Position numbers and translations under genes: made by a program
In this document: positions 4,889 through 51,700 of the stretch, in pieces
Position numbering within the stretch: the first letter of the stretch is position 1
Layout of the letters: every line of letters starts with the position of its first letter
Source: an uncultured delta proteobacterium
GTDB lineage: Bacteria > Desulfobacterota > Syntrophobacteria > BM002
DNA: 64,000 nucleotides
NCBI GenBank assembly: GCA_963712115.1
Contig: CAVQGX010000026.1
Location: 32,001 to 96,000 of the forward strand
Reading direction: 5' to 3'
The notes under the pieces: model-generated
What the model saw: the letters and a program-made list of their open reading frames with translations, nothing else
Told to the model about the DNA's origin: nothing
Databases searched by the model: none

Positions 4889-7582
4889 ATGTCAGAAAAA
4901 GAGGCTACCCTTTATCTCATCGACGGCAGTGCTTATATCTACAGGGCCTTTTACGCTGTCCGTCATTTGAGTACCTCCTCAGGAATTCCCACCAACGCGG
5001 TCTACGGCTTTATTGGCATGCTCAATAAGATCCTCAGGGAAAAGGACCCAAGGCACATAGTTATTGCCCTTGATGCCCCGGGACCAACCTTCCGCCACGA
5101 CCTCAGCGCTGATTACAAGGCAACTCGTTTAAAAATGCCGGAGGATCTGGCTAAGCAGATTCCATTCATAAAAAGACTGATTGGGGCTTTTGGCATACCC
5201 AGTATGGAGATCCCCGGATATGAAGCCGATGACATCATTGGTACTCTTGCAACCTGGGCCAGCGGGCAGGGGGCGAAAGTGGTAATTGTTTCAGGGGATA
5301 AGGATCTGCTGCAGCTGATGACGCCACAAGTGCAGATGTGGGACACCATGAAAGATGAGGTTTTTGGACCAGCGGAGGTGGAAGCAAAATTCGGAGTTCC
5401 CCCTGCCCAGTTGGTTGAAGTAATGGGGTTAGCTGGAGATAGCAGTGATAACATTCCTGGGGTGCCTGGGGTTGGTCCAAAGACAGCTCAACGGCTAATA
5501 AGAGAATTCGGCAGTATTGATAACTTACTGTTTGAATTGGAGAAAATCCCCAAAGAAAAAGAACGTGAGAGGCTGAAGGTTCATGCCGAGCAGGCCAAAA
5601 TGTCGCGAGAACTGGCTGAGATTAAGTGCGATGTCCCCCTGGAAAAGGACTGGGAGCAGTTTGAGTTGGGCGAGAGTGATCGGGAGGGTCTGTTAGCCCT
5701 ATACAGGGAGCTGGAATTTAAGAAATTCCTCCAAGAATTGGACGAAAAGAAAGACACCCAAGAATTCAAAACGATCAGGGACGACTATAAACTTGTTACT
5801 TCCCTTGAAGCACTGAAAAAGATTCTTTACCGGATTCTAAAGAGCCAAAAGGTAGCCATAAGTGTAATTACCACAGAGGGTAATTATCTTGAGTCTGACC
5901 TGGTAGGTATAGCTCTAGCTTGGGAAGGGGAAAGTGGTTGCCACTACCTTCACCTTGGTCAGGTCTCTAAGTCTGGTCCTAACCAATTATCCGCCACTTC
6001 AACAGTAAAATTGCTGGCCCCACTGCTGGGTGAACCCGATGTTGACAAAGTTATCCACAACAGCAAAAAGGCTTGGATTGTCTTTAAAAGACTAGGCATT
6101 GAGTTGTCGGGCACCAACTTCGACCCAATGTTGGCCGCCTATGTATTGGATCCGGGCAAGAGGGTGCAGGACTTGGAGGCCATAGCAAAAGAATATCTCA
6201 GCAAGTCGTTGGTTTCGTATGATGATCTGGTGGGAACCGGCAGAAAGAGACAAGCCTTAGCCAACCTGCCGGTGGAGCAAATTCTGGCCTATGCCGGAGA
6301 TCAAGCTGTTTATTCCCTGCAACTCGCCACGCCTCTGGAGGAAAAAATCAAGGCAGCCAACCAGACCACACTATTTAGAGACATCGAAATTCCACTGGTT
6401 CGGGTGCTGGCTCGCATGGAGATGAAGGGGGTAAAGATCGATGTGGAGCGACTGGAGGATCTTGATAGGGACTTTAGCGCTCGCCTAGAGGATATAGTCG
6501 AGAGGATTTATGATCTGTCTGGGGAGAGCTTTAACATAAATTCGCCACAACAGTTAGGACGAATTCTTTTTGATAAATTGGCCTTGCCCATGGGAAAGAA
6601 AACAAAGACAGGTTACTCTACCTCCATGGATGTCCTTACAGCACTTGCACCTTACCATCTCCTACCCAGGGAAGTCCTTAATTACAGAACTCTCACGAAG
6701 CTAAAGAATACCTATGTTGACACCCTGCCGCGCATGGTAAACCGGGATACCGGTCGAATACACACGTCCTACAACCAGACCGGTACAGTGACGGGCAGAC
6801 TGAGCTCTAGCGAACCGAATCTTCAGAATATCCCCGTGCGTACTGAAGAGGGGAGAGAAATCCGTCGCGCCTTTGTGGCTGACCCCGGTCATTTGTTAAT
6901 TTCAGCGGACTATTCTCAGATTGAACTGAGAATCCTAGGCCATTATTCTAGAGACCAGGCATTAATTGACGCCTTCCACAAAGGTGAGGACGTGCACCTC
7001 CGCACTGCGGCGGAGATTTTTGAGGTGGAACCACATGAGGTTACCGCGGAAATGAGGCGGCAGGCAAAGACCATTAACTTCGGCATCATCTACGGCATGA
7101 GCGCATTCAGACTCGCCAGGGATCTGGGTGTACCTCAAAAGAAAGGCCAACAGATCTTAGAACGTTACTTTGACAGGTACGGGGGAGTTCGATCATATAT
7201 GGAAGAGACCCCTAGGCTGGGGCGTGAACAGGGATTTGTCGCAACCCTATTAAATCGCAAAAGATTCCTCCCAGATCTGAAGAGCCGCAATCGCAATGTC
7301 AGACAGTTTGCTGAACGAACTGCCATAAATACGCCGATACAGGGCAGCGCTGCTGATATGATCAAAATGGCCATGATTCGCATTGACGCTGAGCTAGAAA
7401 GGAAATCGCTGCCTGCCAGAATGATCATGCAGGTTCACGATGAGTTGGTTGTTGAAGTGGAAGCCAGCAGTGCTCGAGATGTGGCTACTCTGGTGCAGCA
7501 CGAAATGGAATCGGTGGCGTCCCTAGCGGTTCCCTTGGTGGTGCAAGTAGGGATTGGGAATAATTGGGATGAAGCGCACTAG
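4889..7582 (+). CDS. polA: DNA polymerase I
   Basis: 5'-3' exonuclease motifs LIDGS and EADD; polymerase motifs ADYSQIELR, AKTINFGIIYG and QVHDEL. Confidence 0.98.
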   Translation: MSEKEATLYLIDGSAYIYRAFYAVRHLSTSSGIPTNAVYGFIGMLNKILREKDPRHIVIALDAPGPTFRHDLSADYKATRLKMPEDLAKQIPFIKRLIGAFGIPSMEIPGYEADDIIGTLATWASGQGAKVVIVSGDKDLLQLMTPQVQMWDTMKDEVFGPAEVEAKFGVPPAQLVEVMGLAGDSSDNIPGVPGVGPKTAQRLIREFGSIDNLLFELEKIPKEKERERLKVHAEQAKMSRELAEIKCDVPLEKDWEQFELGESDREGLLALYRELEFKKFLQELDEKKDTQEFKTIRDDYKLVTSLEALKKILYRILKSQKVAISVITTEGNYLESDLVGIALAWEGESGCHYLHLGQVSKSGPNQLSATSTVKLLAPLLGEPDVDKVIHNSKKAWIVFKRLGIELSGTNFDPMLAAYVLDPGKRVQDLEAIAKEYLSKSLVSYDDLVGTGRKRQALANLPVEQILAYAGDQAVYSLQLATPLEEKIKAANQTTLFRDIEIPLVRVLARMEMKGVKIDVERLEDLDRDFSARLEDIVERIYDLSGESFNINSPQQLGRILFDKLALPMGKKTKTGYSTSMDVLTALAPYHLLPREVLNYRTLTKLKNTYVDTLPRMVNRDTGRIHTSYNQTGTVTGRLSSSEPNLQNIPVRTEEGREIRRAFVADPGHLLISADYSQIELRILGHYSRDQALIDAFHKGEDVHLRTAAEIFEVEPHEVTAEMRRQAKTINFGIIYGMSAFRLARDLGVPQKKGQQILERYFDRYGGVRSYMEETPRLGREQGFVATLLNRKRFLPDLKSRNRNVRQFAERTAINTPIQGSAADMIKMAMIRIDAELERKSLPARMIMQVHDELVVEVEASSARDVATLVQHEMESVASLAVPLVVQVGIGNNWDEAH

Positions 7583-7583
7583 A

Positions 7584-7826
7584 ATGCCAGAGGCGCAATG
7601 CGCCTCTGGCATAAATCCGAAATCCCAATTTCTAAATCCCAAACAAATTCGAATTACCAAAATACAAAATTAAAAACGGGAAAAATCAATGGCCAGATTC
7701 TCAGCATAGTCGTTTGCCTGCAGAATTAGGGTTGCGCGACCTTTTGAGCATTGAATATTTGAAACTGGGGCCCCACCCAAAGGGTGGGGAGTCCGGAGGA
7801 CAATTTGGAATTTGTTTCGGATTTAG
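7584..7826. repeat. AAATCCN/GGATTT-type inverted array with perfect hairpins
   Basis: Perfect hairpin ATGCCAGAGGCGC-AAT-GCGCCTCTGGCAT, then AAATCCG/AAATCCC units, hairpin CCCCACCC-AAA-GGGTGGGG, and mirror arm GGAATTTGTTTCGGATTT. Confidence 0.65.
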
Positions 7827-7853
7827 CTGAATAGAGAATGGCCCTGGGAAACA

Positions 7854-7882
7854 TTGACAATTGGGGCATGGGACGATAAACT
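7854..7882 (+). promoter_or_regulatory. sigma70 promoter of the putative ncRNA
   Basis: TTGACA(7854)-N17-TAAACT(7877). Confidence 0.8.
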
Positions 7883-7889
7883 AAAAAAT

Positions 7890-8221
7890 GAGCTTGCCAG
7901 GGGCAGGCACAGAAACTGCGTCCACGGAGCGCCGCGCCACCTAATAAGAAGACGGCTAGGCACGCAGGGACGTGCCCCTGAAGGAGTTGCTCCTTCCGGA
8001 ATTCTTCTGGAAGGAGAGCGACCCCGGCACCACGAGAGTCCCTGCCCTCTCGGGTGTCCGTACTGTGGCAGGGTAGTGCTCAGAATCCACTCGCAGACCT
8101 GAGCGCGAGAGTAATGCGGGTTAGGCCCGACCAGAAAAATGTAACCAGGCCATCTGGCGGGCGACGAACTGTCTGGTATTTTGGACGGCAATCAGTTTCT
8201 GTGCCTGTCCCTGTTGGGCTC
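7890..8221 (+). ncRNA. Unidentified ~330-nt structured RNA with three tandem pseudoknots (tmRNA pk2-4-like) and no tRNA-like domain
   Basis: 5' and 3' ends pair over about 30 bp; three H-type pseudoknots at 8025-8177; own promoter and terminators; no credible ORF. Confidence 0.75.
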
Positions 8222-8226
8222 GAGAG

Positions 8227-8298
8227 AAAAACCACCCGCTGAGGGGTGGTTTTTTTAATCCTCCTCTAGCTAAGGCAAAAATAGCTAGGGGTTTTTTT
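8227..8298 (+). terminator. Two tandem intrinsic terminators (the first may be bidirectional)
   Basis: AAAAACCACCC-gctgag-GGGTGGTTTTTTT, then CCTCTAGCTA...TAGCTAGGGG-T7. Confidence 0.8.
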
Positions 8299-8329
8299 GT
8301 TGACCTATCTCCCACTCTTAAAGATAGGA

Positions 8330-8647
8330 TCAGGACTTCTCTTCTTTTTTGATTTTTCCTAGCTCCGACTTAAGTTGTTCAACTTCTTCCTTGTACTTTT
8401 CTGCCTCTTCTTTGTACTTGGGGGCTTCATCGGTGTCCAGAGTTGATGAAAACTCATCCTCTTTCTTGCTGAAATAAGGAAGCTTGTCTTTCACCTCGTC
8501 AAAGCCAAGGTAAGCAGCAATAACACCACCAAACAACAGCATTACAGGCAGTCCCCCTGCGACCAGCAGCAGGAATGCATCCCACCAAACAAGCAAGAGT
8601 ATGACCCCCAGTACAGCTGCAACAATCCCACCGACAAACACCGCCAT
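8330..8647 (-). CDS. Small two-TM membrane protein with charged coiled-coil tail
   Basis: AAGGAGG RBS; two hydrophobic helices; KYKEEAE repeats. Confidence 0.85.
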   Translation of the reverse strand: MAVFVGGIVAAVLGVILLLVWWDAFLLLVAGGLPVMLLFGGVIAAYLGFDEVKDKLPYFSKKEDEFSSTLDTDEAPKYKEEAEKYKEEVEQLKSELGKIKKEEKS

Positions 8648-9036
8648 GCCATTTCCTCCTTCTTGTAGATACCACGAAATTTAGCGGCTACCGAAAAAGA
8701 GCGTGAAAGGCCGCCCATTCCATACTGATGGCACGAAAACTCCTCCCGTATACCATGAGCATCAGGGGATTGCAAGACAATTTTACCCTCTTTAACAAGG
8801 CGCTATTGATATGGTCGCAAATAGCTTGTCCAATAATGTACTTTCGCTTTTATGAGGTCTAATCGGTACACGGTAAAAGTCCACTTTTTTCCGAAAACCC
8901 CTTTACAAGAAGAGCTTTTCTCTATACAATCAGCCCATCTCTAGGTCTGGTCCGGTTTAGCTGTGGATCAGGTATTTGTTGGAATCAGGGATTGTCTAAA
9001 TTAAGTGTTTAAACTCAAGCAACAAGGGTGGTGCTT

Positions 9037-10353
9037 ATGGCTAAACCATCAAAAAAAGGTGCAAAATCGGAAGCCGAAGTTGCGGCAGAGGCAAACAGGA
9101 AAAAAGAGATCCTTGATAAGGTGGCTCAGTCCAACCTGCCCACCAAGACGATTTTGAAGGAGTTGGGCATTTCCAGGTCCACCTATTACAGCTGGCTCAA
9201 GCGCTACGAAGAGGAAGGGGAGGAGGGACTGCTGGACAGTCGCTCACAGGCGCAACCAAGCGAGGAAAAAGTAGAAGCAGCCCCTGCGGTTGAAGAGGCC
9301 GAATCCCAACCTCCGGTGCAGGCGGAACCGGTGGCCGAAGAAGTGAGGGAGGAAAAGGTCGAACCTCCAACAGTGGAGGAACCCAAGGTGAAGCCTCCAG
9401 AGCCGGTTTCCCCGCCATTGGCGAAGGAGCCCAAGGCAGTGGAAAAAGTAAGCAGACCATCTCCAACTCCCCCACTTAGTGGGGGTGAAGCTAAAAAGGG
9501 CCTTGGCGGCTATGCCTTCGTCGCTGTATTGCTCTTGGCAATCGGTCTGTTAGTGAGCATTAGTCTCAGCAATTACAACACCTATAAGCTGGTTAAGAAC
9601 AACAACACCGTCACACTATGGAAGGGTAAGTTTGCTCCCCGTGGTTTTGAAGTGGTGGAGTCCTTCGAGCCGGTAGTGGTTGGGGACAGTGACGTAAGTG
9701 GGTTGACCAACAAGCTCTACACTGGCAAGGCTGCTGTTTATAAAGCCATCTTTGGTTTTTATATGGACCAAGTAACCGGAGAGACTTCCAAAGGTGACAA
9801 GGCAGACATGAGCATGATCAGCCTACTCCTCGACAGGGCAGAGAATTTTATGGATGGCAACGGCAAAGAGGAAGATAGTCTGGCGACAATGCGTTTCAAC
9901 TTGGCCCAACAACGGGTTGCCATGGCAGAATTAGGGTTGCAAAAGGCTTATCAAAAGGCACTGCCGATTTACCAGGAAGCGCTTAAGGCCGGCTTGGCAG
10001 ATAGCGCCATGCTGGAAGCCAAAGTAGAAACCATGCAAAAAACATTGGGACTTGCTCCGGTTCTACCACCAGACGAAGAAGCTGAGACTGCTCCGGCGGA
10101 GGAAACAATCATCAAGGAACCTGCGGCTACTGCCACCCCGGAAGAAAAACCAGCCGAAGTAGTTGTGGCTCCTCAAGAGGAAGGCAAACAAGGGGAAACT
10201 GGAGTCAAGGTAGAGCCAGCTGCCGAAGCCGGCGAGGATGTCAAAGAGGAAACGGGAACAAAAGTTACCACGGAGCCGGCCAAAGATGAGGAGACCAACG
10301 AGAAGCCCAGCGGTTTTAAGGAGTGGCTGAAATCGAAACGATCCCAGTTGTAG
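9037..10353 (+). CDS. Bitopic membrane protein: N-terminal transposase-like HTH, Pro/Glu linker, TM and extracytoplasmic domain
   Basis: ILKELGISRSTYYSWLKRY...GLLD HTH; TM YAFVAVLLLAIGLLVSISL; upstream TTTACA-N17-TACAAT (8902-8930). Confidence 0.85.
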   Translation: MAKPSKKGAKSEAEVAAEANRKKEILDKVAQSNLPTKTILKELGISRSTYYSWLKRYEEEGEEGLLDSRSQAQPSEEKVEAAPAVEEAESQPPVQAEPVAEEVREEKVEPPTVEEPKVKPPEPVSPPLAKEPKAVEKVSRPSPTPPLSGGEAKKGLGGYAFVAVLLLAIGLLVSISLSNYNTYKLVKNNNTVTLWKGKFAPRGFEVVESFEPVVVGDSDVSGLTNKLYTGKAAVYKAIFGFYMDQVTGETSKGDKADMSMISLLLDRAENFMDGNGKEEDSLATMRFNLAQQRVAMAELGLQKAYQKALPIYQEALKAGLADSAMLEAKVETMQKTLGLAPVLPPDEEAETAPAEETIIKEPAATATPEEKPAEVVVAPQEEGKQGETGVKVEPAAEAGEDVKEETGTKVTTEPAKDEETNEKPSGFKEWLKSKRSQL

Positions 10354-51624: not shown

Positions 51625-51700
51625 GCGGGCATAGCTCAGTTGGTAGAGTACGAGCTTCCCAAGCTCGGTGTCGCGGGTTCGAATCCCGTTGCCCGCTCCA
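51625..51700 (+). tRNA. tRNA-Gly (CCC)
   Basis: 76-nt cloverleaf; anticodon arm CGAGC-TTCCCAA-GCTCG; GGTTCGAATCC; encoded CCA. Confidence 0.98.

Follow-up and report, generated by a model that had tools for sequence, protein, structure and literature searches.

A structured non-coding RNA gene with three consecutive pseudoknots in uncultured Syntrophobacterales-type Desulfobacterota

Large bacterial RNAs that carry several covarying pseudoknots are few, and those that are understood are ribozymes, the cores of ribonucleoproteins or self-assembling cages. The transfer-messenger RNA (tmRNA) has a body, H2-H5-PK2-PK3-PK4, made of a long closing helix, a hairpin and three H-type pseudoknots, each spanning about 50 nt and separated from the next by a very short linker, and PK2 to PK4 form its least constrained part. 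The OLE, raiA, ROOL, GOLLD and HEARO RNAs are GC-rich intergenic genes with their own promoter, many covarying helices and pseudoknots and invariant unpaired nucleotides, and their biochemical role is not established. The 6S RNA, in turn, is an abundant RNA of about 200-300 nt that has a long, sequence-conserved closing helix and its own sigma-70 promoter.

In this report, we describe an RNA gene that resembles each of these systems in part. It occupies positions 7890-8221 of the + strand (332 nt) of the window, by which we mean the whole stretch of 64,000 nt that was analysed. It is a new gene, present in a single copy, for a structured non-coding RNA. A conserved sigma-70 promoter of its own precedes it, and, in the genomes sampled, the gene appears to be confined to one order of uncultured Syntrophobacterales-type Desulfobacterota. 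With the tmRNA it shares the layout of the body, a similar overall size (332 nt against 356 nt for the tmRNA of the same genome) and a high word depth in RNA libraries. Unlike the tmRNA, it has no tRNA-like domain, CCA end or tag frame, it shows no sequence or profile similarity to it, its range is a single order, and it coexists with a normal ssrA and a normal smpB. It has all of the features listed above for OLE, raiA, ROOL, GOLLD and HEARO; however, it is smaller than OLE, ROOL and GOLLD, has no associated protein gene and is far more narrowly distributed. Unlike the 6S RNA, which it resembles in abundance, size, closing helix and promoter, it lacks the central bubble architecture and any match to RF00013. 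We rate it as a new family that has no detectable relative. No description of it was found in the literature searched, a passage of PMC5737381 on ROOL included; the supplementary motif lists of the discovery papers could hold one.

The clean covariation, the strong conserved promoter and the metatranscriptome cover in several studies take this RNA beyond a fold prediction, to what we regard as a well-founded new family. Its layout copies the least understood part of the tmRNA. Nature has here provided a system for testing what pseudoknots in series are capable of when the tRNA and mRNA parts are absent. The narrow and uncultured host range limits its reach. The features of the locus are as follows.

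4889-7582, + strand: polA, DNA polymerase I, with the Pfam DNA_pol_A domain and the 5'-3' and 3'-5' exonuclease domains
7854-7882, + strand: sigma-70-type promoter TTGACA-17-TAAACT (-35 box 7854-7859, -10 box 7877-7882), 10 of 12 consensus positions
7890-8221, + strand: the RNA gene
7890-7896/8215-8221, 7898-7918/8193-8213 and 7919-7923/8183-8187, + strand: terminal helix P1, with the 5-nt bulge GCAAT at 8188-8192
7890-7923, + strand: 5' strand of P1, pairing with 8183-8221, with almost no sequence change in its inner part (7906-7923)
8183-8221, + strand: 3' strand of P1, which holds the bulge
7931-7956, + strand: P2, a weakly supported hairpin (7931-7935/7952-7956) with a variable, A-rich loop
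7960-7975, + strand: hairpin P3
7983-8024, + strand: P4, a long variable hairpin
8025-8073, + strand: pseudoknot a (first stem 8025-8038/8047-8060, second stem 8040-8046/8067-8073)
8076-8121, + strand: pseudoknot b (first stem 8076-8083/8099-8106, second stem 8089-8095/8115-8121)
8125-8177, + strand: pseudoknot c (first stem 8125-8134/8154-8162, second stem 8144-8150/8171-8177)
8227-8254, both strands: hairpin of the form A-run-CCACCCG-loop-CGGGTGG(-U-run), a bidirectional terminator common to the RNA and the convergent gene
8263-8298, + strand: second terminator-like hairpin (8263-8291, inverted repeat I7) with a U-run
8330-8647, - strand: convergent gene whose translation is a membrane protein of 105 aa that ends in a charged tail

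The RNA gene lies between polA and the small membrane-protein gene, which converge on it, and this order is well conserved. In the 27 homologous loci examined, which represent 23 distinct sources, polA is always found upstream on the same strand, the small membrane-protein gene (-) follows the RNA in 26, and a gene for an HTH/membrane protein (+) comes next in 25. The 105-aa protein has no Pfam match. The third neighbour (9028-10353, + strand) encodes a protein of 441 aa. It begins with a transposase-like HTH domain and also contains a membrane segment and long regions rich in Pro, Glu and Ala; as its position is kept in 25 of the 27 loci, the gene is a resident of the locus rather than a transposase gene. 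The interval from polA to the promoter contains 4.4 copies of the repeat AAATCCC and a strong hairpin of -22.9 kcal/mol that has no U-run (sites 7613-7643 and 7765-7796). The RNA itself has a G+C content of 60.2%, against 49.8% for the window.

The transcription signals that the original prediction had pointed out, a promoter and a double terminator, are both there. P1 starts about 7 nt past the promoter, and a promoter scoring at least 9 of 12 stands 7-20 nt ahead of P1 in all of the 26 homologues checked. On the other side, the two hairpins at 8227-8254 (-19.5 kcal/mol) and 8263-8291 (-13.8 kcal/mol) are each followed by a U-run. The first of them is present in 26 of 26 homologues, and its CCACCCG-loop-CGGGTGG stem covaries in two lineages. 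Its A-run is also found in 26 of 26, so that this hairpin can always serve as a terminator on the minus strand, for the convergent gene; the U-rich tail on its 3' side, in contrast, is found in only 15 of 26, which makes it only sometimes a canonical terminator for the RNA.

Every element of the predicted fold is present where the original prediction had placed it in the sequence, and we could examine this fold in an alignment of 39 homologous sequences, 37 of them distinct, which we term A2. The layout is that of a P1 helix enclosing P2, P3 and P4 and then three H-type pseudoknots of 46-53 nt, which have second stems of 7 bp and are separated by linkers of 2-3 nt. The structure counted on A2 comprises 112 pairs; standard pairs are formed in 93.0% of the 4105 cells, and 46 of the 112 pairs show changes on both sides. 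None of 500 shuffles reached any of the five measures used, but the sequences of A2 are related (mean column identity of 75%), so that this shuffle control overstates the significance, and the sounder evidence for the structure comes from slid controls and from the counts of pair types. When the 3' partners are slid by 1-3 columns, the pairing of the full structure falls to 33-44%. Taken alone, the three pseudoknot second stems, which make up 21 pairs, have 99.1% of their 777 cells paired, and sliding brings this figure down to 25-45%; changes on both sides are seen in 5 of these 21 pairs. The three consecutive pseudoknots that had been proposed from one sequence are thus borne out by its homologues.

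The 332-nt stretch has a minimum free energy of -161.3 kcal/mol (z = -6.05), and none of 100 shuffles folds as well. The opposite strand folds nearly as well (z = -5.6), which means that the folding energy alone does not give the strand. The cells of A2 do so: G-U cells number 309 against 103 A-C cells, which favours the + strand, as the G-U pairs of the single sequence had led one to expect. No open frame is conserved across the homologues; in the genomes G009, G010 and G013, the longest frame reaches only 58-65 aa.

The support differs from one element to the next. In P1, the paired ends with the GCAAT bulge were recovered as predicted: changes on both sides are frequent in the outer part (15 of the 28 pairs of helix 1), while the inner part and the bulge are kept in sequence on A2, beyond what pairing alone would ask for. 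The one extra pair drawn at first, A7924-U8182, is not conserved. In P2, 85.9% of the cells pair; four of its pairs hardly vary, and in the fifth C-A predominates. P3 is paired in 99.5% of the cells, with changes on both sides in 2 of its 5 pairs. P4, the long hairpin announced ahead of the pseudoknots, folds as a hairpin in 27 of 27 distinct versions despite their sequence divergence, and 9 of its 16 pairs change on both sides. The second stem of pseudoknot a is paired in 98.1% of the cells, and its central pair occurs in 6 pair types. That of pseudoknot b is paired in 100% of the cells; its compensatory support is one pair that goes from CG to UA in two sequences, in addition to G-U changes, and 6 of the 11 pairs of the first stem change on both sides. 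In pseudoknot c, the second stem is paired in 99.2% of the cells, and 3 of its 7 pairs change on both sides, including one from AU to GC in seven sequences. The third loops of the pseudoknots hold invariant unpaired nucleotides (CGAGAGU, GCGACA), as do the linkers, and a GGAG just past P1 is conserved in A2.

Several additional pairings were considered and dropped. A pseudoknot between the P3 loop and the 3' tail, possible in the source genome, is not conserved in A2; an alternative proposed by RNAalifold, pairing 7932-7935 with 8116-8119, competes with pseudoknot b; and the complementarity of the pseudoknot a loop to P1 (I5) is specific to the source genome. An all-against-all covariation scan for extra tertiary pairs was dominated by clade effects and gave nothing usable.

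This architecture led us to a proposal for what the RNA does. The stacked pseudoknots, with their 7-bp second stems and linkers of 2-3 nt, the invariant unpaired nucleotides and the sequence-conserved inner P1 and bulge suggest a rigid array that could form a stable scaffold acting in trans, in the manner of abundant housekeeping RNAs, and binding a protein partner or the ribosome. The recognition surfaces would be the invariant nucleotides of the linkers and of the third loops together with the inner P1 and its bulge, and P1 as a whole would be a stem for stability or processing rather than the working part. This mechanism is put forward on the basis of architecture, conservation and presence in RNA libraries only, and we hold it to be a tentative possibility that falls short of being probable; the complete explanation, a new structured RNA gene together with a scaffold acting in trans, we consider moderately probable.

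The distribution of the RNA was examined in several ways. A DNA search of 41 related genomes recovered it from 20 of the 21 that belong to its own family and from none of the 19 that represent five other families of the class. A scan with the exact pattern, using one genome per species, gave 61 loci, of which 19 are true homologues (nhmmer E<=1e-72), all in genomes already found by the DNA search; the titles of their records designate them as Syntrophobacterales, Syntrophobacteria, Deltaproteobacteria, Desulfobacteraceae or Desulfobacterota MAGs. The same scan of metagenomes gave 31 loci, of which 27 are true homologues. The other pattern loci (42 of the 61 on genome contigs and 4 of the 31 in metagenomes) have no nhmmer match and are not homologues; one of them, L061, is GC-rich coding sequence. 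We also used a covariance model, R1, which has 159 positions and covers only 8025-8182, the pseudoknot helices being outside the model. Applied to 47 non-homologous pattern loci, including a viral one, R1 scored only the pattern itself, with 11.8-16.7 bits in 8 loci. In the genome collection, the order amounts to one family of 5 genera, and R1 found one copy in each of 21 of its 22 genomes. The only genome of the order without the RNA is 83% complete and lacks the polA match too, so that the region is probably unassembled there. Outside the family, R1 was applied to samples and not to the whole groups: 100 genomes of the class yielded one weak match (22 bits, E = 0.028), and the 149 from the phylum yielded none.

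The sister families give an idea of what the locus may have looked like before. In 5 of 9 of their loci, the small gene is convergent to polA at a distance of about 70-190 nt, with only a terminator hairpin in between, whereas the spacer between polA and the small gene measures 747 nt in the source genome; R1 had no match in any of the 9 loci. Since the RNA is missing from these spacers, the gene is a lineage-specific insertion into an old convergent spacer, ahead of an old bidirectional terminator. It also follows that the neighbours say nothing about function, as they adjoin each other in relatives that have no RNA.

Such an insertion would be expected if the region were what is left of a mobile element, or no more than a structured spacer or terminator without function. 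This is extremely unlikely in our view. The RNA is single-copy in the source genome, and it has no match in phage and plasmid collections; the single match to a viral contig is a chance pattern, as non-homologous as the other rejected pattern loci. There are no direct or tandem repeats in 7850-8310, which also means that the three pseudoknots are not copies of a single unit, and no repeats at the ends of the RNA other than P1. In addition, compensatory changes and a conserved promoter are maintained across 5 genera, and contigs from RNA libraries cover the RNA.

The homologues with covariation that had been sought downstream of polA thus exist; known families gave a very different picture. At gathering score, Rfam 15 finds nothing in the whole window but a tRNA at 51625. 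Relaxing the threshold to E<=10 for 7700-8400 brings up 10 weak matches, none of which concerns a ribozyme class or the tmRNA, RNase P, 6S, SRP or raiA families. Nine of them overlap the terminators or precede the RNA, and one of the nine extends back to 8184, inside the 3' strand of P1; the tenth is to a fungal snoRNA model (12.7 bits). As they lie on terminators or belong to eukaryotic or archaeal families, all are taken as chance. Seven divergent homologous loci gave only five sub-threshold Rfam matches. Two homologues have matches to the archaeal H/ACA model PyrR205 (L016:1696-1756 and L019:262-324), with 26.4 and 20.9 bits, below the gathering score of 35.6, which we also attribute to chance; they fall in the region of pseudoknot b.

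The comparison with the tmRNA deserves particular attention, as the original prediction had described the RNA as tmRNA-derived or convergent. The first half of this idea would make it a paralogue of the tmRNA that lost the tRNA-like domain and the tag, and that would act as a decoy on the ribosome or sequester S1 or SmpB. Indeed, the elements follow one another as they do in the tmRNA, where a closing helix and a hairpin come before three pseudoknots (46-53 nt each in this RNA), with covariation support for P1, P4 and pseudoknots a-c, and this is a likeness in layout, not homology. The conserved GGAG just past P1 would also fit, and the genome encodes both SmpB and a canonical tmRNA, the latter scoring 207 bits, with the tag ADNYAYAVAA and a length of 356 nt, so that the ssrA that was to be looked for elsewhere in the genome is there. 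However, neither RF00023 nor any other model of the tmRNA and tRNA clans matches 7700-8400 at E<=10, and ARAGORN calls no tmRNA in the window. The acceptor stem, the T-arm and the 3' CCA are absent, the end of P1 being GGGCUC, which agrees with the predicted absence of a tRNA-like domain. No tag frame with a resume codon and a stop is seen either, in agreement with the same prediction: ARAGORN calls none, and no frame is conserved among the homologues, where indels of 1-2 nt occur in the P2 loop (7939-7951) and show that this loop is not a reading frame. When R1 was run with filters off on the tmRNA and RNase P loci of the same genome, it gave at most 3 bits, and the local alignment of the RNA to its own tmRNA scored 20, against 18.8 +/- 2.3 for shuffles, 97 of 300 of which scored as high. 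PK2-PK4 would, in addition, be an odd part to keep alone. From the absence of any clan match, the low R1 scores and the shuffle-level alignment, it follows that the likeness to the tmRNA is one of layout only and that descent from the tmRNA is without support; we give the paralogue a low probability.

The other canonical RNAs were found elsewhere in the genome: the RNase P RNA with 326 bits (C30), the 6S RNA with 81 bits (G000:C2:41852-42034) and the SRP RNA with 60 bits. For RNase P RNA, RF00010 has no match in 7700-8400 at E<=10, and the local alignment to the RNase P RNA of the same genome is at shuffle level. For 6S RNA, RF00013 has no match at E<=10, and the RNA has a multi-domain core with no central bubble. 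Thus, the RNA at 7890-8221 is not a tmRNA, an RNase P RNA, a 6S RNA or an SRP RNA, and the families that the original prediction wished to see compared (the tmRNA clan, RNase P, 6S, SRP and raiA) give no match even at E<=10. The Rfam models of OLE, ROOL, GOLLD, raiA and HEARO have no match, at gathering score or at E<=10, and those of the hammerhead, twister, pistol, hatchet and HDV-like ribozymes have none either, at E<=10 here and at E<=5 on the seven homologous loci. Type III antitoxins of the ToxI type also carry several pseudoknots in a row and, like this RNA possibly, are processed; unlike theirs, its pseudoknots are not sequence repeats, there being no tandem repeats, and no toxin gene follows, the downstream genes encoding a membrane protein and an HTH protein. 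Separately, the 6S model gives 30-40 bits (cut-off 46.4) to five stretches of 178-180 nt in the source genome (G000), at C44:13967-14144, C18:1992-2171, C46:149003-149182, C11:77088-77267 and C4:57-236; these may be copies of a further structured repeat.

The RNA is present in the RNA libraries of several studies. The stretch occurs in 20 public runs from 12 studies, of which 6 are RNA libraries, and the contigs (Logan) of 4 of these 6, from 4 studies, were placed on 7400-8800. Contigs cover the RNA body in 4 of the 4 metatranscriptome runs examined, as the original prediction of an orphan transcript would have it. One contig of run X16 (record 10) spans 7907-8183 in one piece and one of X17 (record 13) spans 7981-8180; X15 and X19 have many, and their word depths run into the thousands. 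The word depths of the contigs on the RNA body go from 166 to several thousand (X15, X16 and X19), and those of the X15 and X19 contigs over 8199-8620 are about 200-290, bearing in mind that genes cannot be ranked by the depth of contigs and that a lack of cover is no proof of anything. It is with this reserve that we mention the lack of contig cover at 7823-7869 (four runs), at the end of polA (X15 and X17) and at 8184-8213 (X16), as these are contigs only and cannot be counted as evidence, and the same holds for the difference in depth from the flanking genes.

The ends of these contigs raise the question of the role of P1. Contigs end at 7907 (X16), at 7912 (X15) and at 8183 (X15 and X16), with adapter letters adjoining, and ends at 8183-8184 recur across three studies; such stops are at best a weak hint of RNA ends. 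In X19, a contig of 198 nt with a depth of 793 joins 8184 back to 7909 (79 + 119 letters, 2 of them ambiguous). At face value, the main species would measure about 276 nt, be devoid of the outer P1 and of the whole 3' strand of P1, and might be circular; as P1 would then be mostly missing, the mature fold would differ from the one drawn here. P1 would in this case be a processing stem, cut within both of its strands to release a species of about 276 nt (about 7909-8184), either closed into a circle, for example by RtcB, or left with a conserved single-stranded 5' tail. This would recall the processing stems of rRNA, where the flanks also pair into a long stem and the apparent ends lie inside it. 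It would account for the contig ends of the three studies and for the back-join; the sequence conservation of the inner P1 and the bulge is what one would look for in a recognition site; and the U-run past the post-P1 hairpin is missing in 11 of 26 homologues, so that no canonical intrinsic terminator can produce their 3' end. The genome has a gene for RtcB (G000:C33:33369-34676, - strand, L191; full-length Pfam match of 594.6 bits). The RtcB gene contains one in-frame TGA, which may be a selenocysteine codon or a break.

However, these data are contigs and not reads. The 5' stops vary (7907, 7909 and 7912), as reverse-transcriptase stalling or loss of the second strand would make them do, the 3' stop falls exactly at the start of the P1 duplex, as failed random priming would give, and template switching from end to end on an abundant RNA could produce the back-join, which was seen in one run only. 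No self-cleaving ribozyme model matches at E<=10. The technical readings, namely stalling of the reverse transcriptase in a 29-bp GC-rich duplex, failure of priming and template switching, are equally good, and we regard processing within P1 as unlikely. Circularisation through an archaeal bulge-helix-bulge, which the one back-join contig might also bring to mind, differs in that there is no such geometry here, the apparent cut sites are about 13 bp apart along P1, and only contigs are at hand. A more elaborate reading, in which an abundant RNA resembling the pseudoknot ring of the tmRNA would be excised from P1, closed into a circle of about 276 nt and act on the ribosome or on another large machine, is improbable. 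Should the hints of processing or circularisation hold true, this RNA would be among the few defined ones from bacterial chromosomes that are circular or excised from a stem, and a true circle would found a new class of circular, pseudoknot-built bacterial RNA.

The conservation of the inner P1 beyond pairing, which the scaffold proposal takes as a recognition surface, would also be expected if the RNA worked by base-pairing. Its 5' segment (about 7906-7930), or the 3' strand of P1 with the terminator (8185-8255), could act as a small RNA on mRNAs, or read-through could produce an antisense to the small gene; contigs that bridge the 3' part of the RNA and the convergent gene (8080-8608 in X15 and 8116-8473 in X19) go in this direction, but they carry no strand information. 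Sites complementary to the 5' segment occur in its own genome at chance level (about eight 12-mers, as expected), and an antisense action would have no need of an elaborate covarying body of 250 nt made of pseudoknots. For these reasons, a base-pairing regulator, or the precursor of one, seems very unlikely, and the scaffold acting in trans stays our preferred, if tentative, proposal. One match of 13 out of 14 to the 5' segment was set aside, as it lies within a dispersed repeat family and counts as one event.

This family consists of short repeats dispersed in the same genome (for instance G000:C30:56431-56790, L193), built of modules of about 115 nt and about 60 nt. Two copies have no Rfam family at gathering score, and no ORF of at least 150 aa is found in the 3 kb past one copy. 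Some copies reach about 330 nt, one copy gives 236 blastn HSPs spread over many contigs, and 20 copies have a 14-mer in common.
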